The notes under the pieces: generated by a model
The model's input: only the letters and a program-made list of their open reading frames with translations
The model's database searches: none
Told to the model about the DNA's origin: nothing
DNA from: a virus
IMG/VR virus record: IMGVR_UViG_3300027974_001900
Coordinates: 32,001 to 96,000 of that record
Length of the DNA: 64,000 nt
Direction: 5' to 3' (one strand)
Made by a program: the position numbers and the translations under genes
Shown here: positions 46,308 to 64,000 of the stretch, piece after piece
Layout: the number at the start of each line of letters is the position of its first letter
Position numbering within the stretch: the first letter of the stretch is position 1

Positions 46308-46510
46308 TCAAACTCCTTTTTTTCAACAACTTTTTTTACTTCTTCATTTACTTTAAAAGAAGGTGTATTCGTTACAATTAAAAATTCTGGCTGATCATCA
46401 TCAATAATAAAATCTAGATCATCTAATAATTGACTAATATCTGTTTCTTCCATAATGCACTTTTGTAAACACATCATAATTGCTGCATGTGCTTGTAATG
46501 ATAGTTTCAT
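46295..46510 (-). CDS. Hypothetical protein
   Basis: 71 aa ORF with an AAGGAG SD. Confidence 0.6.
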   Translation of the reverse strand: MKLSLQAHAAIMMCLQKCIMEETDISQLLDDLDFIIDDDQPEFLIVTNTPSFKVNEEVKKVVEKKEFEWKE

Positions 46511-46671
46511 TTATTTTCTCCTTTATTTAAAATAATACAACATGGTGTTTTTTTAATTAACTTTTGAAATTCTAAGTATGCATCTGTAAAGTTTTCAAAT
46601 ACTTTATTTAAAACCATAGCTTGAATAGTAAATTCGTCAAAATCACACACTTCCCATAATTCGTATTTCAT
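46507..46671 (-). CDS. 54-aa hypothetical protein (missed by ORF track)
   Basis: MKYELWEVCDFDEFTIQAMVLNKVFENFTDAYLEFQKLIKKTPCCIILNKGENK*. Fills the gap and has an ATGA overlap with the next gene. Confidence 0.5.
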   Translation of the reverse strand: MKYELWEVCDFDEFTIQAMVLNKVFENFTDAYLEFQKLIKKTPCCIILNKGENK

Positions 46672-47656: not shown

Positions 47657-48797
47657 TAATAATATTAGTTATATACGATATTTCATTTTCTTTTAAGTCC
47701 TGATGATTTGGTACATAAAAGCCATATTTATCAATATAATCAGCATTTTTCATTTCAACAATTCCATATTTTTTATACCAAAAAGGTTTTCTGCTTAAAG
47801 AACCAGCTATCAAAGGTCTTACTTCAATATTGTGGTCTTTTAACTTCTGTACTATTTCAGTTCTTCTTTCGGATAAATAAGGAAAAGCAAAGTTAGATAT
47901 AAAAGCTTCTTTATTGTTATTTATTTGTAATATATTTTTTTTCAATTTTTCTAAGTAAATATTAAAATTTTCATTTCTTTTTTTAGCAAATAAATTTAAT
48001 TTATCTATTTGTTTTAAGCCAATTTTAGCTTGTAAATCTGTAGATCTAAAATTAAAACCAGGATAATAAAAAGTATATAAAGAATCAAATTCATTTATAT
48101 TATATTTTTTTCTATATTCTTGTTGTACTTCTTTTGGCCAATCTCTATCCCATCCATGCGATCTCATAGAAGTGATCAGCAAAGAAAGCTCTTTGTCATT
48201 GGTGCAAACAAAACCTCCTTCAATTGTGCTCAAGTGGTGTCCATAAAAAAGGGAAAAAACCGAAACTTCTCCAAATGTTCCTAAATACTTATCTTTATAC
48301 TTGGATCCCATGCTTTCGCAAACATCTTCAAGCAAAATAACATCATATTTTTTACAAAGCTCTAAAACCTTGTCCATGTCTGGTACAAGTCCTAACACCG
48401 ATACCAATATAACAATAGAAGGGCTTTGTTCTTTAAAAATTTTTTCTAACTCTTCTAAATCTAAAGATAAATCATGTAGATTACAATCACATAAAATTGG
48501 TGTCATACCTAATTGCATTACAGAAGAAATATCTGTCAACCAACTTAGTGCAGGTACAACAACTTTATCATTTTTAATGCCCCTTTCTTTTAGAGCCGCC
48601 AAGGCCAATAATATTGCAGAAGACCCTGAGTTTACATAAGTTGTATGATTTGTATTTATATAAGATGACCACTTTTCTTCAAATTCGACAGTGACATCTC
48701 CTTTAGTAAGCTTTGGAATTTCATCCTGTAGAAGCCAGTCAGTAAGCGATTTAATATCTTCTTTGTTTATTGTATCAGAAACAAGTCCTATTTTCAT
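47640..48797 (-). CDS. PLP-dependent GDP-4-keto-6-deoxymannose 3-dehydratase (ColD-like, DegT family)
   Basis: NSGSSA, EDVCESMG, SLFYGHHLSTIEGG (His where aminotransferases have the catalytic Lys), RSHGW, PGFNFR and NHQ. Confidence 0.8.
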   Translation of the reverse strand: MKIGLVSDTINKEDIKSLTDWLLQDEIPKLTKGDVTVEFEEKWSSYINTNHTTYVNSGSSAILLALAALKERGIKNDKVVVPALSWLTDISSVMQLGMTPILCDCNLHDLSLDLEELEKIFKEQSPSIVILVSVLGLVPDMDKVLELCKKYDVILLEDVCESMGSKYKDKYLGTFGEVSVFSLFYGHHLSTIEGGFVCTNDKELSLLITSMRSHGWDRDWPKEVQQEYRKKYNINEFDSLYTFYYPGFNFRSTDLQAKIGLKQIDKLNLFAKKRNENFNIYLEKLKKNILQINNNKEAFISNFAFPYLSERRTEIVQKLKDHNIEVRPLIAGSLSRKPFWYKKYGIVEMKNADYIDKYGFYVPNHQDLKENEISYITNIINEMDV

Positions 48798-48828
48798 TTA
48801 AATTATTCTCCAAAAAATATTTTATTTA

Positions 48829-49617
48829 TTACGAAGGAGTTCCATCATTCCACGTATGCAAAGAAATTGCAACCTTAGCCGTGCCTTCATATGAAATTAA
48901 AATATCATTTATTTCTTCTTCGGTGTATGTTTCTGGGTAGTATTTGCCTGTTATTTCTGTATAAAGATCTTTTATAACATTATATTTTTCTGGGTGGTGT
49001 TTTAAACACCAATTTGCATAAGAATCTTGATCTGATATACAACATTCTTTTGTGGTAATTTTACAAGCTTCTTTAAAAAATATTTTATGGTCATTTCCAT
49101 ATTTATTTAAAAGTTCTTTTGTAATTTTTTTATTATACATCATAAATTCAACTATAAAAGAATCATCTGCAACTTTTTCTAAATCAAACATATGCTCGGT
49201 GAATTTAAAGTATGCCTCACAATAATGAGAATGTTGTGGAGACATGAAAAAATTTGGTTTTCCATCTTTATCAAAAAGATCTATAGGATTTAAAAAGAAA
49301 TTATCAGACTGAATATCTAGATAGTAATCTTGTTCTGTTATATCTTGAAATAAAGCTATAAATTGTGCAAAACACCAATTTTTTCTATATTTAATTTCTT
49401 CTCTATCGCAGCCAGGAAGTGCATCTTCATCTTTTACAGTTATAATTATATCATCATATTTAGTGTTTTCTGGTTTATAACCATCTGGATTGATTAAATA
49501 AATTTTTGATGGCTGTGGATTTAAAAATTTAATAGAGTTGATTACATGTTTAAGTTTACAATAATCTTTTATTCCAGATTTTATAATAACATCATATTTT
49601 TTATTTTGTTCTTTCAT
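48829..49617 (-). CDS. Putative glycosyl/nucleotidyl transferase-like protein (DUF6492-like)
   Basis: NWCFAQFI, YLDIQSDNFFLNP and SFIVEFMMY. Embedded in the glycan cluster. Confidence 0.45.
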   Translation of the reverse strand: MKEQNKKYDVIIKSGIKDYCKLKHVINSIKFLNPQPSKIYLINPDGYKPENTKYDDIIITVKDEDALPGCDREEIKYRKNWCFAQFIALFQDITEQDYYLDIQSDNFFLNPIDLFDKDGKPNFFMSPQHSHYCEAYFKFTEHMFDLEKVADDSFIVEFMMYNKKITKELLNKYGNDHKIFFKEACKITTKECCISDQDSYANWCLKHHPEKYNVIKDLYTEITGKYYPETYTEEEINDILISYEGTAKVAISLHTWNDGTPS

Positions 49618-49621
49618 AATA

Positions 49622-50551
49622 TTAAATTCCTCTTATGTTTGGATAGTTTTCTTCTAGCCACTTACAGGTTTCCTTTAATCCGTCTTCTAGGTTGGTATAA
49701 TTATTAATATCCCATCCTAGTGACAAAAATTTAGAATTATCTGACATTCTTCTATGCTGACCTTCGGAAAACTTTTCGTCCCATTTAATTTCTCCTTCAT
49801 AGTTATAAATTTTTGAAATTAAATTTGCTAAATCTCTTATACTAATTTCGTTCGTATTACCAACATTTATAGATTCAGTTTCGTTGTAGTTTTCTAAACA
49901 AAAAAGAATAATTTTTGCTAAATCATTTGAATAAGTAAACTCTCTCTTTGCACTACCATTTCCCCATAAAACTACTTCTTTATTAAATTTTTTAGCTTCA
50001 AATATTTTTCTCATTATTGATGGTATAACATGTGCATTATTTAAATCAAAATTATCATATGGTCCATAAAGATTGTTTGGTATTATACAAATAAAATTAT
50101 CTCCATATTGTTCTTTATAAGCTCTAGAATGTATGTCCATCATTCTTTTAGAAAAACCATAGCCATAATTTGAATGGTGACTTAATCCATTATGTATGTC
50201 TTTTTCTTTTAATGGCAAAGGAGCATTAAAGGGGTATATACAAGTGCTAAGTATAGAAATTAATTTTTTTACCTTAAAATCATGGCACGCTTTAACTACA
50301 TTTGTATTTATTAAAACATTTTCTGTAAAAAAATCAGCTTGAGAATATAAATTTGCTTTTAATCCCCCGACTTTTGCGGCTAGGTGAACAACATATTCAG
50401 GTCTATATTTTTCAAAAACTTCTCTAGTTTGTATTGGGTCTTGTAAATTTATTTTACTATCAAGATATATTGCACCTGGCAAGATTTTTTGTAAGGCTCT
50501 GCCCGCCATTCCGCTTCCACCAGTTACTAAAATTTTTTCATTATTTATCAT
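49622..50551 (-). CDS. fcl: GDP-L-fucose synthase / ColC-like epimerase-reductase
   Basis: GGSGMAG, HLAAKVGG, LSTCIYP, YGFSK, PNNLYGPYDNF, HVIP and WGNGSAKREF. Confidence 0.92.
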   Translation of the reverse strand: MINNEKILVTGGSGMAGRALQKILPGAIYLDSKINLQDPIQTREVFEKYRPEYVVHLAAKVGGLKANLYSQADFFTENVLINTNVVKACHDFKVKKLISILSTCIYPFNAPLPLKEKDIHNGLSHHSNYGYGFSKRMMDIHSRAYKEQYGDNFICIIPNNLYGPYDNFDLNNAHVIPSIMRKIFEAKKFNKEVVLWGNGSAKREFTYSNDLAKIILFCLENYNETESINVGNTNEISIRDLANLISKIYNYEGEIKWDEKFSEGQHRRMSDNSKFLSLGWDINNYTNLEDGLKETCKWLEENYPNIRGI

Positions 50552-51809
50552 TAATATCCTCCGAAGAAATTATAGTAAATTTAGGACATGGTACTATAAA
50601 TTTACCACCATTGTTTAAATAATTTCTTTCTCTCTCGGTAAATTCTTTTATAAAGTGCCAAGGAAGAATTAATAAATAATCAGGCTTTTCGCTTCTCATT
50701 TGTTCTTCTGATATAATTGGAATATTTGTTCCCGCTGTTCTTAGCCCGTGTTTATATGGTGAACGATCAGCAATTGCGGTTATTTGAGCATTATCAAGAC
50801 CATACCATTGGATAAGAGTATTTCCTTTTGTCGAAGCTCCATAGCCATAAATTGTTTTATTTTTCTCTTTTTCTTGTTTTATAAATGAAACCATTTTTTC
50901 TTTTAAAGAACAAATATCATTATAAAAATTAATATATGTTTCTGGATTATTAATTTGCAAACTTTCTTCATATTTTAATAAAGATTCAATTCTAAAATTT
51001 GCAACGTCTCTCTTTTGTTGGTCTCTAAACCTAGTTTTATCCGCTTCTTTTTTCATCAAAAATACTCTAAAGCTTCCACCATTTACATCATTTAAAGTAC
51101 AATCAACTATATCAAACCCCACCTTATCCATTAAGTATTTAATCGAAGATAGTGAATAATATGTTATATGCTCATGGCAGATATTATCAAAAGCCATTTG
51201 TCTTAACATTAAAGGAGTATAACTTAATTGAATGACCCAAATTCCATTATCTTCTAATATTTCTTTAACATCATTACAAAAAGAAATTGGATTATCTAAA
51301 TCATAAAACATTGCAATAGTAGTAACTATTTTTGCTTTTTTACTACCATATTTTCCAGATTTATATGCCTTGGCTGAAAAATAATCTTGTATTACTTCGT
51401 CTGCTTTTTTAGACGATTCTGTATGATAAGAATCGTCACTCGGATCTATGCCTAACTTAACAAGATGACTAGGAACATAATCAAATAAAGTTCCATCATT
51501 ACAGGCTATATCTAAAAAAATATCTCCTTCTTTTGTTTTAACCGATTTTAAACAGCTATCGACAACATCTTTTAATTCATCTTTCATTGTTTGATTGGTT
51601 CCAGAACGATACCAATATCTTCCATACATCTTTTCTTGTGGTATGGTATCTTCTAGTTGCAACAGCCCAGATTTTTCACATAATTTTAATTTTAACTCAC
51701 ATTCACCAGCTCTTGGCTGTTCGTTTTCTGTTAAAAAATCAGACATATATATATTGCCCAAAGAAAATACTTCTTTTGTTTCTTCACCCGAAATTCTACA
51801 TTTAGACAT
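50541..51809 (-). CDS. NDP-hexose C-3 methyltransferase (class I SAM-dependent)
   Basis: YWYRSG, LDIACNDGTL, FDNICHEH, YGASTKGNT and PDYLLILPWHF. Confidence 0.88.
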   Translation of the reverse strand: MSKCRISGEETKEVFSLGNIYMSDFLTENEQPRAGECELKLKLCEKSGLLQLEDTIPQEKMYGRYWYRSGTNQTMKDELKDVVDSCLKSVKTKEGDIFLDIACNDGTLFDYVPSHLVKLGIDPSDDSYHTESSKKADEVIQDYFSAKAYKSGKYGSKKAKIVTTIAMFYDLDNPISFCNDVKEILEDNGIWVIQLSYTPLMLRQMAFDNICHEHITYYSLSSIKYLMDKVGFDIVDCTLNDVNGGSFRVFLMKKEADKTRFRDQQKRDVANFRIESLLKYEESLQINNPETYINFYNDICSLKEKMVSFIKQEKEKNKTIYGYGASTKGNTLIQWYGLDNAQITAIADRSPYKHGLRTAGTNIPIISEEQMRSEKPDYLLILPWHFIKEFTERERNYLNNGGKFIVPCPKFTIISSEDINDK

Positions 51810-52115
51810 TTAATCCTCGCTTTTAAAAAATATTAAACTATTAACCGCTTTATCGCATATGAATAAATCATAAGCTGGTTTACCGAATTTTATTGAATGA
51901 TATTTGACATTCCAATCACTAAGCTGTTTTTTTGTTATTTGTTCCCAATTTATACCAGTTAATGTTCCTCTTGCTGTCCAATAAACTATATTATTACCAT
52001 CGTCATATAGTTTGTTTATTTTTTCAATATTTTGTTTTATAGGAATTGATTTTGCATAATTTCTATCTTCTGGTGTTATGCAAATCGTTTCGTCTATATC
52101 TACATAGATTATCAT
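51810..52115 (-). CDS. Small HAD-family phosphatase (capsule biosynthesis type)
   Basis: VDIDETIC (DxD), WTARG and GKPAYDLFICDKA. Confidence 0.8.
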   Translation of the reverse strand: MIIYVDIDETICITPEDRNYAKSIPIKQNIEKINKLYDDGNNIVYWTARGTLTGINWEQITKKQLSDWNVKYHSIKFGKPAYDLFICDKAVNSLIFFKSED

Positions 52116-52927
52116 TTTCCTCTCAAAGATTTTTTCTTTTCTATTTCACTTCCGACTAGTTCTCTTGGGGCTGCACTTCCTAAGGCAGATTCTATATCTC
52201 TTATACCTTTTACAAGTTTAATTAAACCTTGAGGCTCAATTGATGCCATATGATCACTACCCCACATTGTTCTATCTAAAGTTATGTGTCTTTCAATCCA
52301 AGTTACTCCCATCGCAATGGTTGCAAAAGTTGTAACTAATCCATATTCGTGCCCACTATATCCAACTTCTTTTTTATATTTTTCTTTTAAAAAGTTAATA
52401 TAATTTAAATTTAATTCATTTATTTTAGATGGATAGCTAGAATTTGTATGAAAGATAACATCAGGATTACCCAAAGATACTGCTTTTTCTATTTCCTCTT
52501 CGGTGCTCATACCAGTTGACATGAGCAAATAATCAAATTTTTTTCTAGAATATTGTAATAATTCATCTTCTGTTATTAGAGCAGATGGTATCTTACCAAT
52601 TGATTTAAAATTAGACATAAAGTCTACAGATGGTGTATCCCATACAGATGCAAACCATCCTATATTATTATTTTTACAGTATTTGTCAATTTCTTGATAT
52701 TCTTTTTCTTCAAACTCAATCTTCTTTTTGTATTCAATATAAGTCATTTCACCCCACGGAGTTTGTCTTAACTTATATTTTTGCTCTTCTGGGACGCAAA
52801 TATCAGGAGTTCTTTTTTGAAATTTTACATAATCACACCCGGCAACTTTTGCGACATCAATTAATTTTTTTGCCGTTTCAACACTACCATTGTGATTTAT
52901 TCCAATTTCAGCTATTATTTTTACCAT
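52112..52927 (-). CDS. neuB: N-acetylneuraminate (nonulosonate) synthase, NeuB family, without C-terminal SAF domain
   Basis: IAEIGINHNG, VKFQKR, KIPSA, STGM, GYSGHE and IERHITLDR..GSDH. Confidence 0.92.
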   Translation of the reverse strand: MVKIIAEIGINHNGSVETAKKLIDVAKVAGCDYVKFQKRTPDICVPEEQKYKLRQTPWGEMTYIEYKKKIEFEEKEYQEIDKYCKNNNIGWFASVWDTPSVDFMSNFKSIGKIPSALITEDELLQYSRKKFDYLLMSTGMSTEEEIEKAVSLGNPDVIFHTNSSYPSKINELNLNYINFLKEKYKKEVGYSGHEYGLVTTFATIAMGVTWIERHITLDRTMWGSDHMASIEPQGLIKLVKGIRDIESALGSAAPRELVGSEIEKKKSLRGK

Positions 52928-53552
52928 TGTATTTCTCCAAATCTTTTTGATAATCTACATCAATAACATTATTAATTGGAAAATAGATTGTATTATCATT
53001 ATACAGATTTTCATTCAGATTTTTAATTTCTTTTGTTTTAAAAATACAAATAAAATGACTTAATTCAAAACATTTTGGATAATCTTGCCTTCTGAAGAGG
53101 TTATGATTAACTAACTGTTTTCCTTTGTTATCTTCTAATTCATATAACATTAAGAATGGGTGTGCCTCAACCTTTTTTTTGCATAAAAGTGAGTCAGCAT
53201 TGTTTGAGGAAAAAAATAAAATTGCCGACTTAACATCTTCCCAAGTTCTTTCTGGATATGTTAAGTATAGCATTAGTATTATCTCTTGATCATTTATCTT
53301 GCAAATATCTACCACATTTTGCAGCACGCTTTTTGTTGATGTTGTATCTTGCGCTAAATCTTCTTCTCTTTTTAAGAGAAATATATCTTCTGAGAAAAAT
53401 TTTGCTTGTTCTAGAATGATGTCGTCGTCGCTAGATATAATTACATCTTTTAATTTATCCTTTGGTATTTTTTCTAATGTATGTAACAAAAGATTTCTGT
53501 TTTTAAATGGTAAACCTTTTGAATTTTTTCGAGCAGGTATTATTATTTTCAT
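52908..53552 (-). CDS. neuA: Acylneuraminate cytidylyltransferase (NeuA family)
   Basis: IIIPARKNSKGLPFKN, SSDD, LAQD, RRQD and IDVD. Confidence 0.88.
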   Translation of the reverse strand: MKIIIPARKNSKGLPFKNRNLLLHTLEKIPKDKLKDVIISSDDDIILEQAKFFSEDIFLLKREEDLAQDTTSTKSVLQNVVDICKINDQEIILMLYLTYPERTWEDVKSAILFFSSNNADSLLCKKKVEAHPFLMLYELEDNKGKQLVNHNLFRRQDYPKCFELSHFICIFKTKEIKNLNENLYNDNTIYFPINNVIDVDYQKDLEKYNGKNNS

Positions 53553-54412
53553 AATAAAAATTCACCAAATTCTAATGTATTATACCAAGATTCTTTGTTT
53601 AAATTAATAATAGATATCCCTCTATTTTTAGCACTCTCATTAAGAACTTTTATATCATTTTCAAGATTTGCTCTAATTGGAGTCCAAGAATTTGGACCTA
53701 AATCTTTATACATCCAGTCGGTTTTTGTTTTATCTGCGTATCCCTTACTATAATCTAAGTCCATACCAGAAACATAAATTGGGTTACACCCCATAATTAT
53801 TGCAAATGCAATCGCATGAAAAGAAACAGTGTCTCCAGTACTATAATGTTCATTGAAATTTGCTATATTCATTAAATATTCTTGTATTGTAATTCTTGGC
53901 GGAATATTCATTGAACAGCATTTGCCATCTGTAGCAAAACCAAAATTTCCTAAATGCCTTGGCGGTTGCCACATTGAACTGTTGTTACCATAATCTTTAA
54001 AATCAAAATTTTTATTTTTTACATAATATTCTTTAAAGTCTCTTAGAATTTGTAAACAATCTTTTCCTTTCCAGTGACGTTGATCATACGCAAGCCATTC
54101 AAAATTAGCATTTTCTTCAATTAATTTTTTATCTGTAAAATCTCCATCATCGGAAAAAAATACAGGTAATTTATTAATATTTAAAAAATTTAAATAATTT
54201 TTGATAGCAAATTCTGCATTACTTAATATCCAATAATCTGGCTTATCCTCAAAATAATCCCACCAATTATTTACAGAAAATCTAATAATATTTTTATTTT
54301 TATGCGCATTTATAATTTTTTCTTTGTCGTTATTCAAACTTGGGCCGTGGCCAGCAATAACACAAGGAACATTTTTATGTCTATCTAATATGTCTTTATA
54401 ATCTAATCTCAT
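53549..54412 (-). CDS. Maf/DUF115- or GT42-like putative nonulosonate transferase
   Basis: CVIAGHGPSL...STG..AIAFAIIMGCNPIYVSGMDLDY, a pattern shared by Maf and CstII-like transferases. Adjacent to neuA. Confidence 0.65.
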   Translation of the reverse strand: MRLDYKDILDRHKNVPCVIAGHGPSLNNDKEKIINAHKNKNIIRFSVNNWWDYFEDKPDYWILSNAEFAIKNYLNFLNINKLPVFFSDDGDFTDKKLIEENANFEWLAYDQRHWKGKDCLQILRDFKEYYVKNKNFDFKDYGNNSSMWQPPRHLGNFGFATDGKCCSMNIPPRITIQEYLMNIANFNEHYSTGDTVSFHAIAFAIIMGCNPIYVSGMDLDYSKGYADKTKTDWMYKDLGPNSWTPIRANLENDIKVLNESAKNRGISIINLNKESWYNTLEFGEFLL

Positions 54413-54419
54413 ATTATCT

Positions 54420-55307
54420 CTATAGTTTTATTTCCAAAGAATTTATAATTTTATCAAATATGATATCATCATAGTTTAAATAATCGTTCATGAATATATC
54501 ATAATTAATTGTGATATATTCTAACATAGATTTGTATTTCTTTTCAGAAATCTCCTCTTTTAATATATTAATTAAATCATCTGGGCTATTAAATTTTATT
54601 ATACCTCTCTCGTCAAAAAATTCTCCAATATTATCACAACCCCAATATACCGGTACTGTTCCACAGGCAAAACAATCTAATATTTTATCAGCAAAATAAT
54701 TCTTTCTTTTTGCATTTTCTATAGCAAGTTGAAACATAAAATCCACAGTTCCTTCTGCTTTTAATTTTATATGTCTATTACATCCATTACCAAATAGTTC
54801 TATTTTATCATATGATATTTTTGGTAATAAACTATCCGCTATTATATGTCTTAATCTATGACCAAAAAGCCAAGTTTTTTCAGAATATACCATTGAGATA
54901 AGTTTATTTTTTTGATGTATCTTACAATCTTTATCTCCAAGACCAGTTGAGTCAGGATTCATAAAAATATATTTATTTTTATTTTTTTTTAGTAATTCTT
55001 CATCGTGTGTTAAAATTAAATCAAAATTTTTTTCATATTTTTGTATCTCATCATATATGTGTGGCAATAAATCTCTAGGTTCTTGTAAAATAGCGACTTT
55101 AAATTTTGAATTAATAACCTCACTTAGAAAGAAAACTTTATCTGTAAATAAAGTTACGCCGTCCCAGTTTTTTTCGTTTTTTACATATTGTATTTTTTTT
55201 GGAGATCTAAGTTCTCCTGGCACTTCCCCCGCTGCTCTCATAATAGATTCTACAAATGAATTTGCATAAACAGAATCGTCTATCATATTAACAGTTAATT
55301 TTTTCAT
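54420..55307 (-). CDS. GT10 (alpha-1,3-fucosyltransferase-like) glycosyltransferase
   Basis: FQLAIENAKRKNYFADKILDCFACGTVPVYWG matches the GT10 motif F.L.FEN....Y.TEK......VP.Y.G. Confidence 0.8.
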   Translation of the reverse strand: MKKLTVNMIDDSVYANSFVESIMRAAGEVPGELRSPKKIQYVKNEKNWDGVTLFTDKVFFLSEVINSKFKVAILQEPRDLLPHIYDEIQKYEKNFDLILTHDEELLKKNKNKYIFMNPDSTGLGDKDCKIHQKNKLISMVYSEKTWLFGHRLRHIIADSLLPKISYDKIELFGNGCNRHIKLKAEGTVDFMFQLAIENAKRKNYFADKILDCFACGTVPVYWGCDNIGEFFDERGIIKFNSPDDLINILKEEISEKKYKSMLEYITINYDIFMNDYLNYDDIIFDKIINSLEIKL

Positions 55308-57319
55308 TTTGTCACACCTATTTCTTCAATTTTTGTTTTACAAGCTGCGACTCTTCTTCCCCACCATAAAATTTCAGTTCCCCAAGAATAATAATCACCA
55401 TTGAAGTTTTTTGCATTGAATTGCAATTTATTTTGTTTTTCTAACAAATTTTCTTTTTTATGTATCACATTATTAATGTTATGTACAAAAGAACTTTCAA
55501 TCGGATAATTTTTGTTTGGATCTAAAATTGCACATTCTTGATATTTTATTAATTCTTTTAGCAAAGAATCTGGAATATCAAAATTTTCTTTTATCACTTT
55601 ATAAACTTCCTCGTAGAATTTTTCTTTATTCTGATTTATTTTCATTGCCGTGGCTTCTTCAAAATCCCATGCGTAATTTTCTCTTACGTCTTCTACGATT
55701 CTTCCCCACGGGAATTTACAATCTAATATTTTGTCTAGAGTATCTGCTGTTTCTTTTAATTCATTGCCGATAAAAGTATTTGGATTATTTATCATATATT
55801 CAAGAAAAGTGCTATAAAATTTTTTATATGACACATTATATGCTGTTCTCATAAATCTACTGATATACTGTAGATATCCTAGATAATGCCCAAACATAAA
55901 AAGCCATCTATAATAATGACATTTTTTATATTCATCATGAGTCATGGTATTGCTACCAACTACCATCTCTTCTCTTTCAAATTCATTGTGTTTTGTGAGA
56001 TCAAGATGTTGAAAAGCAGTATAGGTTTCTATAACTTTTAGCCCATATTGTTCCCTATATTCTTTGGATCCAAATGGAGTATTTGGCAAAGAGGTGAGAG
56101 AATATATTCCGATATAGTTGTGTTGTTCTAATTCTATTATTTGACAAATACCATCAATAAAACTTTCTAAAGTTTCTTCTGGAAGCCCTAGAATAACCTC
56201 CATATAGCTGGGCAATTCTGTTTGATTATATAAATCTAAAAATTCTTTTAATTTTCCATTGTCAACATTTTTTCTTTTTATTGCTTTTAAAACATTTGGA
56301 TTCATAGATTGAACTGCTATTGTAATTCCTTTATCCATTTGTGCTTCATAAAAAGTTTTTGCCAAATCTAATACTTCATCAGCTTTATTTTTAGCCCAAT
56401 CACAACGGTGTTTTTCTGGATATCCATTTTCTTTTTTCTTTTTTACCAAATATTCAGTTACATGTTTATGCTCTGGCAACATACCAAAATTGGAATCTGC
56501 ATTATAAACAAAAACCACTTTATTATCTGATAACCAATCTACTTCTTTTAGAACTTTTTCTAAAACTGGAGTTCTAATTCTTTGATAATATTTTGTTCCA
56601 ATCTCACAAAATGTACACTGATACGGACAGCCCCTAGTTGTTTCAATTGTTGCCTCTAGTTTATATGGGCAGTCTTTTATTAGTTCATCAAATAGTCCGT
56701 TTAAATACGGGCTAGGCATCGTTGATAGGTCTTCTATTCTAGGTCTTACTGATGTTACATACGTATCGTCCTCAAATATTAAATCAGCTGTTTTTATTTC
56801 TATTAAATCAATACTATTTTTTATAATATTTTTTATTTTACGGTGTTCTTTATCAATAAGAGACATTTTTATCGAACAGCCTAGAACATTATGCCACTCT
56901 TTTTTGTCTTTAAGATGTTCTAAGAGAATATCTTTAAACGCCTCCTCTCCTTCTCCATGAACTATTATATCAACATATGGGTGCTCTTTAAAAAAGTTTT
57001 GACTTCTATCAGCAATTGGCGGCTGCCATCCACCATATACAATTATACAATCTGGATACTTTTCTTTTATTTTTTTCGCCATTTTATTATTAAAATGCCA
57101 ATTCCAAACAAAAGTATTAAATCCTATTACAGAAGGATTTTTTATTTTTTCTAATATTAGATCTATATCTTCTCGATAATAAAACCATCCATCTAATTTA
57201 TAATTATTAGATATTGTTTCATTTCTTAAACAATTTGACCAAATTAAACCAGTACTATATGGTAATTTAACCTGTCCAACTAGTACATCATTTATTTCAA
57301 ATAGATAAAGATTGTTCAT
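55304..57319 (-). CDS. Cobalamin-dependent radical SAM enzyme
   Basis: N-terminal B12-binding domain (IVYGG, VHGEGE), ETTRGCPYQCTFC, DSNFG and ILGLPEET. Confidence 0.88.
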   Translation of the reverse strand: MNNLYLFEINDVLVGQVKLPYSTGLIWSNCLRNETISNNYKLDGWFYYREDIDLILEKIKNPSVIGFNTFVWNWHFNNKMAKKIKEKYPDCIIVYGGWQPPIADRSQNFFKEHPYVDIIVHGEGEEAFKDILLEHLKDKKEWHNVLGCSIKMSLIDKEHRKIKNIIKNSIDLIEIKTADLIFEDDTYVTSVRPRIEDLSTMPSPYLNGLFDELIKDCPYKLEATIETTRGCPYQCTFCEIGTKYYQRIRTPVLEKVLKEVDWLSDNKVVFVYNADSNFGMLPEHKHVTEYLVKKKKENGYPEKHRCDWAKNKADEVLDLAKTFYEAQMDKGITIAVQSMNPNVLKAIKRKNVDNGKLKEFLDLYNQTELPSYMEVILGLPEETLESFIDGICQIIELEQHNYIGIYSLTSLPNTPFGSKEYREQYGLKVIETYTAFQHLDLTKHNEFEREEMVVGSNTMTHDEYKKCHYYRWLFMFGHYLGYLQYISRFMRTAYNVSYKKFYSTFLEYMINNPNTFIGNELKETADTLDKILDCKFPWGRIVEDVRENYAWDFEEATAMKINQNKEKFYEEVYKVIKENFDIPDSLLKELIKYQECAILDPNKNYPIESSFVHNINNVIHKKENLLEKQNKLQFNAKNFNGDYYSWGTEILWWGRRVAACKTKIEEIGVTK

Positions 57320-57993
57320 TTTTTTTCTCTAAAAATATTGTGTTTTCTTAAATCGTGATATGTTTTATTAGATCCATTATCTTTATTTTCTTTCTGCATT
57401 ATATCAAAAGCTAATATACCTTGTGCTGCAATCTCTGGCGGCATATACATATTCCATCCCATAATAGTAAAGATTTCATCTTCATACATTGTATTTTTAT
57501 GTGGGTGACGACCTTTTGCCCTAGCGGCTTTAAACCATTCTACTGCTTTTTCGTCATTTGTCAATATCATTCCGCCTTTTGTAAGTTTTAAAATTTTTTT
57601 TCTATGAAAGGATAAACATTGATATGAATCTTTTATATACATATTTTTAGTAAATCTTTGAGCACTATCATATATCGGATATGGTGATAACTGATATAAA
57701 CCCGACCATTCAATTTCATTTAATTCAAAATCACACCCAGCATGTTTTATTAACATCGGCAATGAAACGTATGTATTACATGGTATTTTTATTGTACCAT
57801 TAGCATTTAAATATTTTAAACACAAAAACAAAGCATCGGTACAATTATCAACAGCAACCGCAAATTTACTTCCAGCAAATTCTGCAATCTTTTTTTCAAA
57901 AATATCAACAGCATCCCAAGGGGTATTTATTTTATATCCTTTTTTTTGTAATTCTTCTAGAGCATATTCTCTTAATGGATCATATTCTAACAT
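57316..57993 (-). CDS. Short DegT/DnrJ-family PLP aminotransferase
   Basis: FEKKIAEFAGSKFAVAVDNCT, DSAQ and SFHRKKIL..KGGMILTND (catalytic Lys region retained). Only 225 aa. Confidence 0.75.
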   Translation of the reverse strand: MLEYDPLREYALEELQKKGYKINTPWDAVDIFEKKIAEFAGSKFAVAVDNCTDALFLCLKYLNANGTIKIPCNTYVSLPMLIKHAGCDFELNEIEWSGLYQLSPYPIYDSAQRFTKNMYIKDSYQCLSFHRKKILKLTKGGMILTNDEKAVEWFKAARAKGRHPHKNTMYEDEIFTIMGWNMYMPPEIAAQGILAFDIMQKENKDNGSNKTYHDLRKHNIFREKK

Positions 57994-57998
57994 TTTAA

Positions 57999-58655
57999 TT
58001 ATTCCTTATTGAACAGAGTGTAATATTCTCCGGGAGCAAACTTTTTCCCATAAAAACTAAATTTTTTCTCTTCTTTGTTATATCTATCATATGGAAGAAT
58101 TCTAAAGTCAAAACTAACTCTAGTTTTTCCAGTTGTATTAAGTTTATTTCCGTGCCTACATCTATTACCGTTAAATATTGCATATTCACCAACAGACATT
58201 TCAATTGGCTTATAATCTTCTAAGCCAGGAACCGATTCTATCCATGTACAGTTTGTATCATAACACTTTGTTAGTGGAATTTGAAAATTTATTTCCCACT
58301 CTGGGTGTCCATGATCTTCATCGTTATCATAGTGCCATTTAGAAACGGCTGTTTGATTTGGTACTTGAACTCTAAATGATGGAAATGCTTGATAAAGAAA
58401 ACTTTTACTAAATTGAGGAGCTATAACTTCTTTAACGAAATCTTCATATACTTTTTTTATTTCATCCCAATTTTTTAGCTTATCATAAAAAATTTTATGA
58501 AAATGTGTTTCTGCTTCGTTTTTTTGTTCTAATTTTTTTGATCCACAAAGCTCTAGATCTATTAAGTGTAATTCTGTTAAATCTTTTATTTGATAAAGAT
58601 CCTCAACTAATTTAACAAAGTCAAATTTTTGTTTTTCATAATTTTTTATAATCAT
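57999..58655 (-). CDS. 2OG-Fe(II) dioxygenase-like protein (StrG-like)
   Basis: YQAFPSFRVQVP, WHYD (HxD), HGNKLN and TRVSFDFR. Confidence 0.7.
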   Translation of the reverse strand: MIIKNYEKQKFDFVKLVEDLYQIKDLTELHLIDLELCGSKKLEQKNEAETHFHKIFYDKLKNWDEIKKVYEDFVKEVIAPQFSKSFLYQAFPSFRVQVPNQTAVSKWHYDNDEDHGHPEWEINFQIPLTKCYDTNCTWIESVPGLEDYKPIEMSVGEYAIFNGNRCRHGNKLNTTGKTRVSFDFRILPYDRYNKEEKKFSFYGKKFAPGEYYTLFNKE

Positions 58656-58665
58656 TTATCTTCTC

Positions 58666-59445
58666 CTAAATTACAATCCAATTTTCTGGTATTAAATCTT
58701 TTATATTTAAATGGCTATTTTTATGAGCAAACCAATTTTTTGGAGCAATAATTTGTTTATCTTTATTCTGGTTTAACCACGCTGCCCACCACGAAAAAGA
58801 ACTATTGGCTATTATATTATTTTTTATTTTTGACATTAAATATAAATCTAACACATCGTCTTGGTTATCTATAAAAATATTTTTATCATTATTAAAAGTG
58901 TTTTTGCACCACTCAATATCGTCGCTAAAAAACACAAAACTTTTATCTTTAAAAAGACTCATAGATTTATCGTAATACTCTTTATTTAATACAGTATGAT
59001 AATCAGAAAGCCTTAAATAATCGCCTCTCCTTATGTGAACAGAAACATAATCCTCGGTGAAAATTTTATCATATTTTTTGTTTATAAAATTTTCAACTTC
59101 TTTTATTGGTTTAAAAAGTTCTAATATTTTTTCTCTATTGTGTGAAAAATATTTTTCTGATTGGAAATAACCCTTAAGAAGTAAATTTGGTTTATAATCT
59201 ATTTTTAAATAAGATTGATCTTCTGGTTCATAATGAGTATTCTCAATAAAATTAAAACTATCTGTAAAATTTAAATTTTTATAAATAGTTTTAAAGTAAA
59301 TTTGTGTTTGTTTGTCGCTTGGTATTATACCACTGGACTTGTACGGAAAAACACATTTATCATTATTATCTAAAGCCAAAGAATAAGCCGTAGATATTAT
59401 AAACATCTGATTACCGAGTCTTCCTAGTAATTCTGCCGCTATCAT
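58666..59445 (-). CDS. GT11 alpha-1,2-fucosyl/colitosyltransferase
   Basis: GRLGNQMF, GYFQSEKYF, SVHIRRGDY, FSDDIEWC and IANSSFSWWAA. Confidence 0.92.
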   Translation of the reverse strand: MIAAELLGRLGNQMFIISTAYSLALDNNDKCVFPYKSSGIIPSDKQTQIYFKTIYKNLNFTDSFNFIENTHYEPEDQSYLKIDYKPNLLLKGYFQSEKYFSHNREKILELFKPIKEVENFINKKYDKIFTEDYVSVHIRRGDYLRLSDYHTVLNKEYYDKSMSLFKDKSFVFFSDDIEWCKNTFNNDKNIFIDNQDDVLDLYLMSKIKNNIIANSSFSWWAAWLNQNKDKQIIAPKNWFAHKNSHLNIKDLIPENWIVI

Positions 59446-60194
59446 AAATCACCATCAATTTTATTATATTTTTTTCTATTTCTAATTTCACTTTCCATAC
59501 TCAATTGAAAGCTATGATTTACTTTATCTTCATTTAAAACATTTGCACGATTATAAACATATAATATATCTCCAATGAACGATGCTCTATTTCCAGCCAT
59601 TTCTAGAAGTGGAAACATTGCGGCTAGGTCTCCAGCCATAAGATAAAATTGATTATTTTTATCTAACAAATCTTCTTTATCTATTTTTTTCCATAATTTA
59701 TATTTAAAACTTCTTAAATGAGAAGTCATCCAGTTACTTTCTCTAAACAAATTATTTTTTATAATCTGCTCTGGTACTTGCCTAGAAAAATTTCCTCTAA
59801 TTAATGAAGGATATTCTACATAGCTACCATATGACATCCAGCATTTTTTTTCTAAATAATTTTTGTTTAAAATTATTAATGTTTCTTTACTATAAAACCA
59901 ATCATCTCCGTCAAGAACTACTATTACATCTTCTTTCTCGCAAGAAGCATTTTCTATTCCATAAAATAAACTAGCTAATGCTCCACGATTTTTATCTGTG
60001 TTTAGTAGTTTAAAATTTTTTAAATCTTTAATTTCATCTTCTATAATTTTTTTAGAGTTATCTGTAGAAGAATCGTTTACAATAATACAATCAAAGTTTT
60101 TATAATCCTGAAGTTTTATACTTCTCAGACAAAGTTTTATCCATTTTTCAGCATTGTACATTGGTACAACAATTTTAAATTTTGTATCAATCAT
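59442..60194 (-). CDS. GT2 glycosyltransferase
   Basis: IVVPMYNAEKWI, VNDSSTD and LDGDDW. Confidence 0.88.
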   Translation of the reverse strand: MIDTKFKIVVPMYNAEKWIKLCLRSIKLQDYKNFDCIIVNDSSTDNSKKIIEDEIKDLKNFKLLNTDKNRGALASLFYGIENASCEKEDVIVVLDGDDWFYSKETLIILNKNYLEKKCWMSYGSYVEYPSLIRGNFSRQVPEQIIKNNLFRESNWMTSHLRSFKYKLWKKIDKEDLLDKNNQFYLMAGDLAAMFPLLEMAGNRASFIGDILYVYNRANVLNEDKVNHSFQLSMESEIRNRKKYNKIDGDL

Positions 60195-61018
60195 AGTATT
60201 CCTAATATTTTATCACATACTTCTTGTCTTTTATTAATCATAAAATTAATTAATTCTTCTCCGTTCAAATAGAACCAATCTTCATATAAAGCTCCAACTA
60301 GTTTATTAGTAAAAACAGTTATATTCATCATTTTTGCTTCTATTACAACCCTAGATAAAGTTTCTGGCGTTTTAGGTATAAAGCAAAAATAATTATTTTT
60401 TCCTAATTTATTTAAGAACTCATAATAATCTTGACTTTCAATCAATTCATAATTTAAATTTTTATTTTTACAAAAAGAAATTGCTCCAAGAGTATTTTTA
60501 TGTTCTATAGCGCTTAATAATATAGAACATGCATCTTTTTTTGGATTTTTTATTTTTTCTCGAACAAATTCTAAATCTTTTAAAGACCAAAGATTACCAG
60601 ATAAATTTGTAATATTATCTATTTTAAGATTATTGTATATAATATTTTTATGGAAGCTTGATTGACAAAAAATAGAAGAAGCATTTTTGTAAAAATCATA
60701 GTTAGCAATTTTATCTTCTGAGCATGTAAAATTCTTACAAAGCCCGGGATTTCTATTTTTTATATACTTATGATCGTGTTCATATAATATATATTTTTTA
60801 TTATAAAAAAACTTAATTAATTTTTGATCAATCAAACAGAAATTGCTTATAATAAAAAATTGATTTTCTTCTATTATTTTTTCATTAATATCAATACTTT
60901 TTATTTTTTTAACTTCTATTGATCTTTCTTCTAAAACATTTATTAATTCTCTATCATTTAGCTCACAGCCTCCTAAAACTTCATCATGAAAAAAATCTGA
61001 AATATATACTATTTTCAT
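60191..61018 (-). CDS. GT-B fold glycosyltransferase-like protein
   Basis: GGCELND, YEHDHK and PETLSRVVIEAKMM. Confidence 0.65.
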   Translation of the reverse strand: MKIVYISDFFHDEVLGGCELNDRELINVLEERSIEVKKIKSIDINEKIIEENQFFIISNFCLIDQKLIKFFYNKKYILYEHDHKYIKNRNPGLCKNFTCSEDKIANYDFYKNASSIFCQSSFHKNIIYNNLKIDNITNLSGNLWSLKDLEFVREKIKNPKKDACSILLSAIEHKNTLGAISFCKNKNLNYELIESQDYYEFLNKLGKNNYFCFIPKTPETLSRVVIEAKMMNITVFTNKLVGALYEDWFYLNGEELINFMINKRQEVCDKILGIL

Positions 61019-62277
61019 TTGTATTCTTGGACATCTTGTTCTAGTTGCTTAAGCCACTCGTCAATCTCAAACACTTCTTTTTTACAAATTGCTTCTGCTA
61101 ATAATGTGTATGGATTTTTTTCTTTATCTTTATTAGTTAAGTACTCTTTTAGTTTTTTAGCTTGTCCTTTAAACCTTCCATAATCCTTAAAACATTCTCT
61201 CATGGCAGATTTTGCTCCAAGTGGTCTAACAAACGCCCACTCCGATTCTGAATGTAATACTCCGTTCCAAACAACTTCTGGCTGAACTTTTTTAAGATCA
61301 TAGGGGACATTCGTAAACGCTTTCTTTTTCTTTCCGTCTATCTCTATATATAAAAAGTCTTTTTGACCAGAATAATCAATAGTAATAACAGGTAATCCAC
61401 AATAAGCAGCCTCAAACAACGGAAGACCGAATCCTTCACCGTGAGCAAAATTTACAATTGCTTTAATTTGTGGGTGAATATAAAGATTATGAATTTCATC
61501 TTCATTTAAATCTCCATGAACTAAATAAATTTTACATTTTCTATCTGGGTATGGCTTTAACAATCCTTGTAGTGCTCTTTCACATGCTATCTTATCTAAC
61601 AAAGAATTATTTGAATAGTTTACTTTACAAACTAGTCCTACATTATCATTCTTAAACTCTTCTAAAAACCAGTTAATTGTATTTGGAAGATTTTTTCTTG
61701 GACCCCATTGTGCAACACAGAGAAAATTAAAATCATAATCTAGTGGTAACCATTCTTTGTGATTATCAAAATGTTTAAATTGTTTTATTGGATAACCAAC
61801 AACCTCAACGGGTTTTTGAAGCTGTAGATCTAGAATTCTTCCGTATTGATCTTGTGCTTTCCAACTTGTATTAACTAAAGTTTCTTTTGAATGTTCAGAA
61901 ACAGTAATAATTTTATCACACTCTCTATTACAAATATCAATCCACTCTGGAGCTACTTTGTTAGTCTCTATACCTGCCGTAATTTCAACTGTAATTGGAG
62001 CTTTTCTTTTTAATTCATTAGGTATACCAACATGAACATATACATCAAATTGTCCTTGTTGATTAACATATTGAACCGTTTTGTTTATAATAGAATCAAT
62101 CCATTTTCTTTCTTCATTTTCTTCAAACAACCAAGATGTCTGACCCCAGTTTAATGGCAATGTGTAAATATCAAAAATATCTTCTTGCAAACGTAGAGAT
62201 CTTAAAACAAATCTTACATGCTCACCATAGCCAGACTGAGTTAAACCTGGTCCTTCAACTAATACTTTCTTTTTCAT
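61015..62277 (-). CDS. GT4-family glycosyltransferase
   Basis: SGYG, RKN and HGEGFGLPLFEAAYCGLPVIT. Confidence 0.88.
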   Translation of the reverse strand: MKKKVLVEGPGLTQSGYGEHVRFVLRSLRLQEDIFDIYTLPLNWGQTSWLFEENEERKWIDSIINKTVQYVNQQGQFDVYVHVGIPNELKRKAPITVEITAGIETNKVAPEWIDICNRECDKIITVSEHSKETLVNTSWKAQDQYGRILDLQLQKPVEVVGYPIKQFKHFDNHKEWLPLDYDFNFLCVAQWGPRKNLPNTINWFLEEFKNDNVGLVCKVNYSNNSLLDKIACERALQGLLKPYPDRKCKIYLVHGDLNEDEIHNLYIHPQIKAIVNFAHGEGFGLPLFEAAYCGLPVITIDYSGQKDFLYIEIDGKKKKAFTNVPYDLKKVQPEVVWNGVLHSESEWAFVRPLGAKSAMRECFKDYGRFKGQAKKLKEYLTNKDKEKNPYTLLAEAICKKEVFEIDEWLKQLEQDVQEYK

Positions 62278-63798
62278 TATTTAACCTCATTTAGAGTCCA
62301 GCGACTATATTGTTTTCTATTTTCCCAAGACCCTCTTTCTTCATAAATCTTGGTCATTAGTTCTACCCATTTATTTTGGTAGTCAGCAAATCCATAGTGT
62401 TTTAAAGCGTGCTCCCTGCCCTTCAGACCGATCTTTTTTCTATCAGTGTGTGAAAGTGTGTGCATTTTTTCAAGCGCTTGTATAAAGTCTTTACCAGAGA
62501 CTTTGTCTTCATAAATGTATGGAACTTCTTGTGAACCAATAACATATTGGGCTGCTGGCTCAATCATTACGCCAAACGTGTCTTCTCCATCTGTAACTTG
62601 CTCTTGCAAACCACCAGTTCTTGGAACGATGATTGGTGTTCCGCAATTTAGAGATTCAAGGGTTGAAAGACCAAACCCTTCCGCATCAGAAGCAGATACA
62701 GTTACGTCTGCCATATTATACATTAATCTTAAATGTTCTGGTGGCACTCCTTGATTTGAAAACAATACTCTACCGTCATCTAATCCACACTCTTTAATAA
62801 TTGCTTCAAGATCTGGTCCATTAGGATCTTTTGGATTTGTATGCATCAAAAGAACTGCTTTATCATTTCCTACTCGATCCAAAAACTCTTTAAACCACCA
62901 AATGATTGCTCCTGGTTGTTTACGACGAGCATTTCTACTATTCCAAAAAACAAGCATTGTATCATCTTTCATATTTGGAAAATGTGCTTTTCTTGCTTTT
63001 TTAACTTCATCTTCTGGAAGTGGGAAGAACTGATCTTCTGGAATTGCATGTGGAATGTAATGACATTCAATTTCTGGCGATACTGTTCTCACAATGTCAT
63101 CTGTAACCTTACTGATTGTAGCAATTACATCATTAGAATCATAGAATGGTTTATTAAACTTTGGATAAGGATAATTATCCCAAACGTGGTAGTAAACCAT
63201 TGGAACTAAAGGACGAATTTCGTTTGCAATGCTCCATAGCCATCCATAAAATCTTGGATCTGTCATAAACCAAAGAATATCTGGTTTTTCTGATCTAATA
63301 ATTGATCGAATGATATTTGGATCGCCAAACCCATCTACAGGAAAAATAGTCCAATCTTCTTTCCACTCTTCTGTTCTAACTGGTTGATAATTTTGATGCT
63401 TGATTGCACCACCTAAAGAAATTACTTGAAATTTTCCTGACTTAAGTAATCCTTCAATAAAATACTTCGTTTGAGTTGCAACACCGCTTGGCATTACCTA
63501 AAAAGTGGACTATATCATCATGAGTAAATCATGTTGGGCGCTGTCGGATCATTACCGTGCTCTTTTTAGAGTTTAGGCTAACCGTAGTCTCTGAACCTTC
63601 ACCAGTATTTCTACACAGATGCTTGGCTGCTGATTGTTACAATACTTATGCTTTTCGAGCATTCACACTTGCCGTTTCCCGCTATGTTGTAGCGCATAAG
63701 TTAGATAATGTTCCAGCAATTCACCCAATTTTATATCCGCCAATGCTTCAAGCTAACGGATGGTCTGAGATCGTCAGAACCTTAATTTTTTTCTCCAT
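62277..63798 (-). CDS. GT4-family glycosyltransferase split by a group I intron: join(complement(63756..63798),complement(62277..63496)), 420 aa
   Basis: Exon 1 encodes MEKKIKVLTISDHP plus T. Exon 2 starts TA-ATG-CCA, giving ...SDHPLMPSGVATQT..., which restores the N-terminal beta-strand and SG loop also seen in the neighbour (KKVLVEGPGLTQSGYG). C-terminal motif EGFGLSTLESLNCGTP. Confidence 0.85.
63497..63755 (-). ncRNA. Group I self-splicing intron (259 nt, no internal ORF, IA-like)
   Basis: Minus strand has P GAAUUGCUGGAA, Q AAUCAGCAG, R GUUCAGAGACUA and S GAUGAUAUAGUCC. Pairings: P3 UUGGGUG/CGCCCAA, P7 GACUA/UAGUC, P8 CAUGA/UCAUG. IGS GCAUUGGCGGAU pairs with both exons. The 5' exon ends in U (U-G wobble) and the intron ends in G. 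Confidence 0.93.
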
Positions 63799-64000
63799 AT
63801 ACACACTCTCTTAGACTGTTTAGTGTTTGTTCGCTGTCTGTTTTATAGTCGTGCTCCCAAACAACTACGACTTTATATCCAAGACCTTCTAGGAAGGTTT
63901 TTCTATCGCTATCATAACTCCAAATTTGCTCCGCTTTAAGTTTTTTCTTCTTATTAAAATAATTTTTTTCATAAAATCTTGGGTCGCAGTGCCAATATGT
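63782..64000 (-). CDS. Vsr/DUF559 (EDxHD-like) endonuclease, C-terminal part; probable free-standing homing endonuclease
   Basis: Not in the ORF track (5' end outside the window). Translation: TYWHCDPRFYEKNYFNKKKKLKAEQIWSYDSDRKTFLEGLGYKVVVVWEHDYK...GEKN*. YWH...D..R...L...GY.V..VWE is the Vsr-like pattern. Confidence 0.75.
   Translation of the reverse strand, partial: TYWHCDPRFYEKNYFNKKKKLKAEQIWSYDSDRKTFLEGLGYKVVVVWEHDYKTDSEQTLNSLRECVYGEKN

Follow-up and report, generated by a model that had tools for sequence, protein, structure and literature searches.

We analyzed a stretch of 64,000 nucleotides (nt) from an uncultured virus (IMG/VR record IMGVR_UViG_3300027974_001900, positions 32,001 to 96,000; hereafter, the window) and found that the start of a GT4-family glycosyltransferase gene on its minus strand is interrupted by a group I intron of 259 nt (63497-63755, minus strand), which contains no open reading frame (ORF) and whose last base is G63497, the omega-G. 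The 3' end of a gene for a free-standing Vsr-like nuclease adjoins the interrupted gene on its upstream side. The interpretation that we favor, with a probability of roughly 0.85, is that the ORF-less intron and the neighboring homing endonuclease constitute a case of "collaborative homing" in a new host gene. Group I introns, EDxHD-type nucleases and the side-by-side arrangement of the two are already known; new in this system are the host gene, an unusually stripped-down ribozyme and the DNA-binding region of the nuclease.

A hidden group I intron at this position had been proposed in a first-pass annotation of the DNA, together with a covariance-model search as a means of checking it. We performed this search, and Rfam family RF00028 matched the site with 64.1 bits, above the gathering score of 50 (E 6e-14). 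RF00028 was the sole Rfam family above threshold in the 64-kb window, and its match is unique within the 117,360-base viral record that contains the window. Since the match (63822..63487, minus strand) extends past both splice sites, the boundaries rest on the comparison with intron-less alleles and on the P1 and P10 pairings described below, and not on the model. Exon 1 occupies positions 63756-63798 of the minus strand (43 nt); it begins with the ATG at 63798 and supplies 14 codons, translated as MEKKIKVLTISDHP, and a single T, which is the first base of codon 15. Exon 2 (62277-63496, minus strand) opens TA ATG CCA and runs from the rest of codon 15 to the stop codon. When the two exons were joined in a script, the reading frame was restored, as had been proposed, and gave a protein of 420 amino acids (aa) with the N-terminus MEKKIKVLTISDHPLMPSGV, the same as in intron-less homologs.

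The boundaries were surveyed in the best 80 of the 521 IMG/VR loci that encode relatives of the glycosyltransferase. In 78 of these 80 loci, nothing separates the exon 1 peptide from the gene body. In the other two, L002 and L031, an insert of 255 or 279 nt is located at the same codon, and the exon 1 peptide lies 258 and 285 nt upstream of the gene body, respectively. At the DNA level, the alignment contains a clean gap in the intron-less loci L001 and L033, between ...CATCC(A/G)(C/T) and T(A/G).... A comparison of 16 homologous proteins, of the kind that the first-pass annotation had suggested, is in line with this result: ten of them, 419-423 aa long, have the unbroken segment ...KIK(V/I)LTISDHPL(M/S)PSGV..., and the other six are 405 aa long, every one beginning at MPSGV. 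The insertion point follows the first base of codon 15 and falls between DHP and L in DHPL(S/M)PSGV, which of the enzyme's N-terminal motifs is the most conserved. Homing-type elements usually insert in highly conserved motifs. A pseudo-palindrome was sought by eye at the insertion site and rejected, as CATC..GATG arms are confined to the rare Leu-Met alleles. Because the Rfam match, the precise presence or absence relative to intron-less alleles and the covariation over 11 intron variants (below) all agree, it is confirmed that a group I intron interrupts the start of the glycosyltransferase gene, with the splice sites as originally proposed.

ORF callers begin the glycosyltransferase at the internal Met 63494 and report an ORF of 405 aa (62277-63494, minus strand). 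This ORF belongs to the GT4 family by its match to PF00534 (51.6 bits, cut-off 26.4) and also matches PF13692 (46.1 bits, cut-off 27). Recognition of the intron returns the first 15 residues to the enzyme, which gene callers shorten to 405 aa, and at least six database homologs begin at the same false Met. The first-pass annotation had taken the presence of an intron as a sign that the gene is conserved and important in this phage group, and the first half of that suggestion agrees with the 521 IMG/VR stretches that encode relatives.

The intron is a member of a family found at one site. Using a 22-nt core word as an exact query, we retrieved 15 IMG/VR loci and 13 metagenome loci, eight of the latter with a core identical to that of an IMG/VR locus. 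All 15 IMG/VR loci had a tblastn match either to the glycosyltransferase (14 loci, 40-72% identity) or to the adjoining nuclease, and the glycosyltransferase was present in all 11 metagenome loci with enough downstream sequence. The 14 complete introns are 251-280 nt long, and all end in G and are preceded by ...CATCCGT; two further core loci are cut by locus ends. The Rfam gathering score was reached by eight complete introns of related loci (54.7-77.2 bits). CCGT stands at the insertion site in just 6 of the 78 intron-less alleles, and therefore the sequence that pairs in P1 travels with the intron. As a separate observation, a second RF00028 match was found in one of the family loci (L095:8442-8646, 51.8 bits), on the viral contig that also contains the glycosyltransferase intron, about 5 kb away from it and presumably in another gene.

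The elements characteristic of a group I core were assigned on the minus strand as P (63711-63722, GAATTGCTGGAA), Q (63627-63635, AATCAGCAG), R (63585-63596, GTTCAGAGACTA) and S (63507-63519, GATGATATAGTCC), together with the internal guide sequence (63735-63746, GCATTGGCGGAT) and the two strands of a P5 extension (ACUUAUGC at 63694-63701 and GCAUAAGU at 63644-63651); each of these positions, as given in the first-pass annotation, agrees with the sequence. The guide forms 12 contiguous pairs as read from the sequence. In P1, guide GCGGAU (63740..63735) pairs with the end of exon 1, AUCCGU (63761..63756), with the wobble U63756.G63740 at the splice site, and in P10, guide GCAUUG (63746..63741) pairs with the start of exon 2, UAAUGC (63496..63491). 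P3 joins UUGGGUG (63722..63728) to CGCCCAA (63534-63540) by seven pairs, 100% paired across the family and two of them compensatory, and P4 joins UGCUGG (63713..63718) to UCAGCA (63628-63633) by six invariant pairs. P5 (UUAU/GUAA), its extension and two inner hairpins occupy 63637..63708, with compensatory changes in 13 of 19 pairs, and P6 (GCC/GGU), P6a/P6b and a GAAA closing loop occupy 63595..63627, with compensatory changes in 6 of 10 pairs and 100% of cells paired. P7 consists of six pairs between G-(A)-GACUA in R (63585..63591) and UAGUCC in S (63507-63512), and forms a pseudoknot with P3. P8 was read from the sequence as a hairpin of arms CAUGA and UCAUG around UUUAC (63519..63533), and a small inverted repeat, differing in sequence, occupies the P8 site in all 15 matched introns (11 distinct). 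The core helices P3, P4, P6, P7 and P8 and the P3/P7 pseudoknot are thus all represented. A pairing of the U-rich 3' tail with the UAAAA joiner was also considered and rejected, as it is not conserved across the variants.

To these elements is added an insert between P7 and P3' (63545..63584, minus strand), which had been noted in the first-pass annotation as a mark of subgroup IA and which folds as two covarying helices, P7.1 and P7.2; the former (helix 13) has nine pairs, and the latter (helix 14) has three pairs, all compensatory. Subgroup IA introns, as generally defined, have the extra helices P7.1/P7.2 between P7 and P3' and usually the peripheral helices P2 and P9. The intron possesses the former and lacks the latter two, and for this reason we call it IA-like and assign it to no named subclass.

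We assessed this structure in an alignment of 11 distinct introns with 15-nt flanks on each side (A2). Unguided folding with RNAalifold recovered P1, P3, P4, P5 with its extension, P6 and P7.1/P7.2, a total of 65 pairs, 24 of them compensatory. The named structure was hand-written, with the P7 pseudoknot and P10 added, and comprises 71 pairs. In this structure, 97.6% of cells are paired across the 11 introns, compared to 28.3-39.9% when the pairing partners are slid by 1-3 columns; 28 of the 71 pairs display compensatory changes, and the observed score was reached by none of 500 shuffles. The U.G wobble of P1, which marks the 5' splice site, is present in all 11 variants. In P10, 92.7% of cells pair and four of five pairs are compensatory, which fixes the 3' splice site independently. 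P1, P4 and P7 are invariant across all 11 introns; covariation consequently speaks neither for nor against the predicted P7, which agrees with the Rfam consensus, and this consensus match is by itself what argues for P4 and P7.

The neighboring gene enters the window with its last 72 codons (63782..64000, minus strand) and continues past the window end; the complete gene (L081:1796-2686, minus strand) encodes 296 aa. Its stop codon is located 26 nt from the point where the intron is inserted, and the gene overlaps the start of the glycosyltransferase gene by 17 nt. The protein has only 45 relatives in a large protein collection. Its Pfam matches, to DUF559 and MTES_1575, are both sub-threshold, and its PHROGs matches are endonuclease families. 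D210, E221, H228, D254 and eight Cys residues are invariant in all 37 aligned sequences, and four further Cys are at least 90% conserved; the Cys residues form three CxxC...CxxxC modules (Cys4, zinc-finger-like) in the N-terminal 130 residues. Comparison of the family profile with E. coli Vsr (E 0.02) aligned D210, E221, H228 and D254 to D51, F62, H69 and D97, respectively, giving the catalytic Glu, Asp, His and Asp of an EDxHD active site. An AlphaFold model (mean pLDDT 87) was compared with known structures using Foldseek, and the top PDB folds were Vsr itself (1vsr, target TM-score 0.64) and the catalytic domain of I-Bth0305I (3r3p, 0.74-0.75), both with a probability of 1.00 and E 1.6e-3 to 3.3e-3. 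The Pfam scan of the nuclease gave no NUMOD family, and an N-terminal region of the NUMOD/helix-turn-helix type was not found. Taken together, these features identify the neighbor as a putative free-standing Vsr-like (EDxHD-type) nuclease with a DNA-binding region that appears to be new.

The same residue pattern, with an additional Glu where Vsr has F62, is described for the Vsr-like homing endonucleases of Dassa et al. (PMC2677866), a family later named EDxHD after the work on I-Bth0305I (PMC3239194). With this family (PMC2677866, PMC3239194) the predicted protein shares a Vsr-type C-terminal fold, the conserved Asp/His/Asp plus the extra Glu, the order of an N-terminal DNA-binding region and a C-terminal nuclease, and an occurrence in phages and environmental DNA in free-standing and intron-associated forms. 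It differs in the N-terminal region, which consists of three Cys4 modules in place of the NUMOD/helix-turn-helix region described for I-Bth0305I (PMC3239194), and in that its gene lies outside the intron. The I-Bth0305I structure 3r3p was retrieved by the fold search only, and not by the sequence-only PDB search.

To relate the distribution of the nuclease to that of the intron, we searched the same 80 IMG/VR loci with the nuclease by tblastn. Only the two intron-bearing loci, L002 and L031, gave a match; there was none in the 78 intron-less loci, although four of these have less than 900 nt upstream, where a full-length nuclease gene could not show. Among the 15 intron-core loci, 12 had a nuclease match, of which ten span at least 180 aa, some of them cut by locus ends; the intron-core locus L096, which gave no nuclease match, is cut by its locus end. 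The intron, which is ORF-less, and the gene for a free-standing endonuclease are hence neighbors that are inherited together, as in the cassettes described for collaborative homing.

An empty site is provided by the intron-less locus L001, whose glycosyltransferase is 89% identical to that of the window and whose gene order is the same on both sides. The two are similar at the DNA level in the upstream 112-aa ORF (79%) and in the gene body (84%), and L001 lacks about 1.2 kb found in the window, so that both the intron and the nuclease are missing. The intron state was mapped on a tree built by maximum likelihood from 87 distinct glycosyltransferases, drawn from the best 80 IMG/VR loci and from loci selected for the intron, a biased sample. 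This tree requires eight changes of state, and branches with good support impose at least five of them; the window groups as sister of the intron-less L001, and L101 as sister of the intron-less L044, both with an SH-aLRT of 99. The allele types observed (empty; intron with intact nuclease; intron with nuclease remnants; intron alone) match the life cycle that a homing element would be expected to have.

Over 63452-64000, a segment with the nuclease gene's end, exon 1, the intron and exon 2's first 45 nt, a DNA contig from run X4 differs from the window at 3 of 549 positions; over 62978-63359, further into the gene, it differs at 52 of 382. Such a pattern is expected if homing took place recently and the co-conversion tract was short. 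This mosaic, which speaks for mobility, is a single contig with a depth of ~6 and could be an assembly chimera, and that weakness is one of several points that weigh against collaborative homing as an explanation of this locus. The others are given here and, where they also favor one of the alternatives, with that alternative. The complete introns of L083, L085, L086, L087 and L091 score below the Rfam gathering score. The Foldseek E-values for the nuclease are modest, and a single-sequence PDB search with this protein returned only ribosomal protein L33 (E 0.32), nothing relevant. In L084, L092, L099 and L108, the intron is accompanied by nothing more than nuclease remnants, with a nuclease match of only 44 residues in the metagenome loci L099 and L108.

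Of the alternatives, the one that survives best, though we consider it unlikely, is that the two elements are independent neighbors: the nuclease would spread by itself into an intergenic spot ("intronless homing"), the intron would be a separate resident, and their closeness would reflect a shared history and not a shared target. Consistent with this, L082, L089 and L106 have the intron and no detectable nuclease. The window and L093 also differ in the manner expected of separate elements, since the introns are 97% identical and the nuclease genes 71-88%, with a sharp step in identity at the border of exon 1 and the intron; upstream of the nuclease the sequences are unrelated, and the homology has its upstream edge where the nuclease gene begins. 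However, independent spread would be expected to leave some alleles with the nuclease and without the intron, and the nuclease was found in none of the 78 intron-less loci. The distance of only 26 nt between the nuclease gene and the insertion site likewise argues for a common target, as does the report that a member of the family, I-Bth0305I, cuts beside an intron insertion site (PMC3239194).

We regard as quite improbable a turnover of endonucleases, an explanation that has been raised for similar loci (PMC10448857). It holds that the intron formerly had an endonuclease ORF of its own, which was replaced by the free-standing nuclease, and that the present arrangement is secondary and not a step to a composite mobile intron. 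A P9 hairpin is kept in L090, L083 and L091 and absent in the other eight variants; its retention in three variants only implies that the 3' region has been remodeled. On the other hand, the 14 complete introns (251-280 nt) are all free of ORFs and ORF remnants, and a second nuclease type was found beside the gene in none of the loci examined.

There is very little likelihood that the intron is a decayed relic that has lost splicing, with the 405-aa enzyme made from the internal Met 63494. This explanation would account for the absence of P2, in whose place six bases connect P1 with P3 in all 11 variants, and for the absence of P9: in 6 of the 11 variants, only 7-10 nt and no P9 hairpin separate P7 from the terminal G, which is unusual for a working intron. 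It would also fit the ATG that directly follows the 3' splice site in the window and L093, and the outcome of the runs X19 and X20, which are labeled RNA-Seq, were flagged as "probably DNA" and yielded only diverged intron-less relatives. Several X19/X20 contigs cover window positions 62900-63485, are ~90% identical to the glycosyltransferase and end at 63485, and their loose end on the gene strand is an uninterrupted DHPLMPS allele. We considered these contigs as a spliced form of the window allele and rejected that assignment, as they represent an intron-less relative. Decay is contradicted by the compensatory changes that keep 97.6% of cells paired among host genes only 40-72% identical, and the absence of P9 across variants makes it a trait of the family, not a sign of decay in the window copy. 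All intron-bearing alleles have a conserved exon 1 that keeps the reading frame. The residue after the junction is Met in the window and L093 and Ser in the other intron-bearing alleles, and the gene-body frame of L031 has its first start codon further downstream, giving a 395-aa ORF that begins MIEAML. Judging from the GT-B fold, the shortened enzyme would be without strand 1 of its N-terminal Rossmann-like domain. Finally, a chance match of a spacer or leader to the group I model, for which one could cite the overrun of the match at both true boundaries, can be dismissed for practical purposes in view of the E-value of 6e-14, the exact indel relative to intron-less alleles and the family-wide covariation.

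Three of the loci named above illustrate the condition of the sequence next to the intron. In L084, a 94-aa ORF (L084:2843-3127) corresponds to the C-terminal third of the nuclease, without the zinc-finger-like modules and the Asp/Glu/His positions, and lies between a RecB/Cas4-like exonuclease gene and a well-formed intron (77.2 bits); we take it for a decaying endonuclease. In L092 (1004-2472, minus strand), the nuclease gene is apparently split around a GDP-mannose-dehydratase-like gene: a 69-aa ORF with zinc-finger-like motifs (2263-2472) and a C-terminal remnant of 65 residues (1004-1198) stand on either side of the intact dehydratase-like gene (1226-2215), all on the minus strand. Its close relative L082 has the dehydratase-like gene and no nuclease trace, and in L082 and L089 a dehydratase-like gene abuts exon 1.

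Under collaborative homing, the locus would work as follows. The transcript would fold into the P3-P8 core, and the guide would hold the end of exon 1, AUCCGU, in P1, with the U.G wobble at the cut, where an outside guanosine would attack. The same guide would then align exon 2, UAAUGC, in P10, and the exons would be joined with release of the terminal G63497. Spliced in vivo, the mRNA would encode the full 420-aa glycosyltransferase; an unspliced transcript would give a protein without its first 15 residues. The intron and the nuclease gene would be two halves of a selfish cassette. In a mixed infection, the nuclease, if active, would most likely cleave the gene in its intron-less form, at the insertion site or close to it, and repair from the donor would transfer the intron, in many cases together with the nuclease gene, while the intron, by disrupting the nuclease target, would protect its own genome. 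The nuclease probably helps both elements to spread among related phages. A more specific proposal, toward which we lean slightly, is that a minimal ribozyme family (251-280 nt, without P2 and mostly without P9) persists solely as the half that confers immunity in a selfish two-gene cassette, that the zinc-finger EDxHD nuclease cuts the site encoding DHPL(S/M)PSGV, and that every stage of homing is present in one phage lineage.

Collaborative homing, in which an ORF-less intron and a free-standing endonuclease converge on one conserved site, is described for the psbA gene of cyanophage S-PM2 with F-CphI and for a second phage system (PMC3984707), and T3/T7-like phages and the ICP1 terminase are listed as further cases (PMC10448857, PMC6083498). 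The present locus resembles these systems in its ORF-less intron, in the nuclease gene adjoining the interrupted gene, and in the co-occurrence and patchy distribution of the two. It differs in its host gene, a glycosyltransferase in a glycan-synthesis cluster instead of a gene for photosynthesis, replication or packaging. F-CphI is reported to belong to the Endo VII-motif family (PMC6083498), and a T5orf172-type nuclease lies beside the ICP1 terminase intron (PMC10448857), whereas the predicted nuclease here is of the Vsr-like EDxHD type, and its cleavage at the insertion site is something we infer. The earlier statement that phage introns mostly sit in genes for DNA metabolism or other core functions is to be softened, as splicing of introns is also reported in capsid and tail genes of phages (PMC3706429). 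A literature search of open-access text, with subscription journals outside its scope, gave no paper on a group I intron in a phage glycosyltransferase.

The introns of the T4 genes td, nrdB and nrdD and those of phages Twort and SPO1 are of the IA type. The intron described here shares with them the P3-P8 core, the R and S elements and the two-helix P7.1/P7.2 insert, and differs in lacking P2 in all 11 variants and a P9 hairpin in 8 of 11, and in a total length of only 251-280 nt. By blastn, its core (20-28% of the query) matched 13 phage records at 71-73% identity, including Staphylococcus, Listeria, Alicyclobacillus and Providencia phages. A ribozyme of this size without P2 or P9 may be of interest for the study and engineering of minimal self-splicing RNAs. 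A sugar-transferase gene of a glycan cluster is added to the known hosts of phage group I introns, and the family offers a well-sampled natural case of an intron that appears to spread together with a free-standing Vsr-like nuclease. The system could be used to address whether such an intron serves the nuclease as self-protection and whether composite mobile introns arise from such pairs.

The window comes from a tailed phage that is uncultured and has genes of the myovirus type, and it contains genes for a portal protein, a large terminase and a baseplate-wedge protein. The terminase shares at best 41-44% identity with those of cultured or deposited phages, the nearest being Microcystis phage Mel-JY01, the Flavobacterium "immuto" phages and one uncultured phage. 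The sequencing runs that contain the entire stretch are labeled freshwater metagenome. The interrupted gene heads a long co-oriented run of sugar-modifying genes (GT4, GT2 and others; 45972-63798). The annotation of Microcystis phage Mel-JY01 (L097; PP395634.1, 83441-84932) divides the homologous glycosyltransferase into two neighboring coding sequences (CDS) that are only 10 nt apart. An intron was considered there, as the gene was matched as two pieces, and rejected; the 10-nt spacing of the CDS points to a frameshift or stop. A PD-(D/E)XK nuclease gene is located upstream of the Mel-JY01 glycosyltransferase and likewise in several metagenomic relatives. The position just upstream of the glycosyltransferase or nuclease cassette is usually occupied by a conserved RecB/Cas4-like exonuclease gene with a 3' Cys cluster (L002:1024-1797, L031:948-1757, L082:6267-7040 and L084:1960-2775), and in the window genome the 112-aa ORF takes its place. 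The 64-kb window has no tRNA genes; in L083, L087, L091, L093 and L095, clusters of tRNA genes are located within a few kb of the glycosyltransferase locus.

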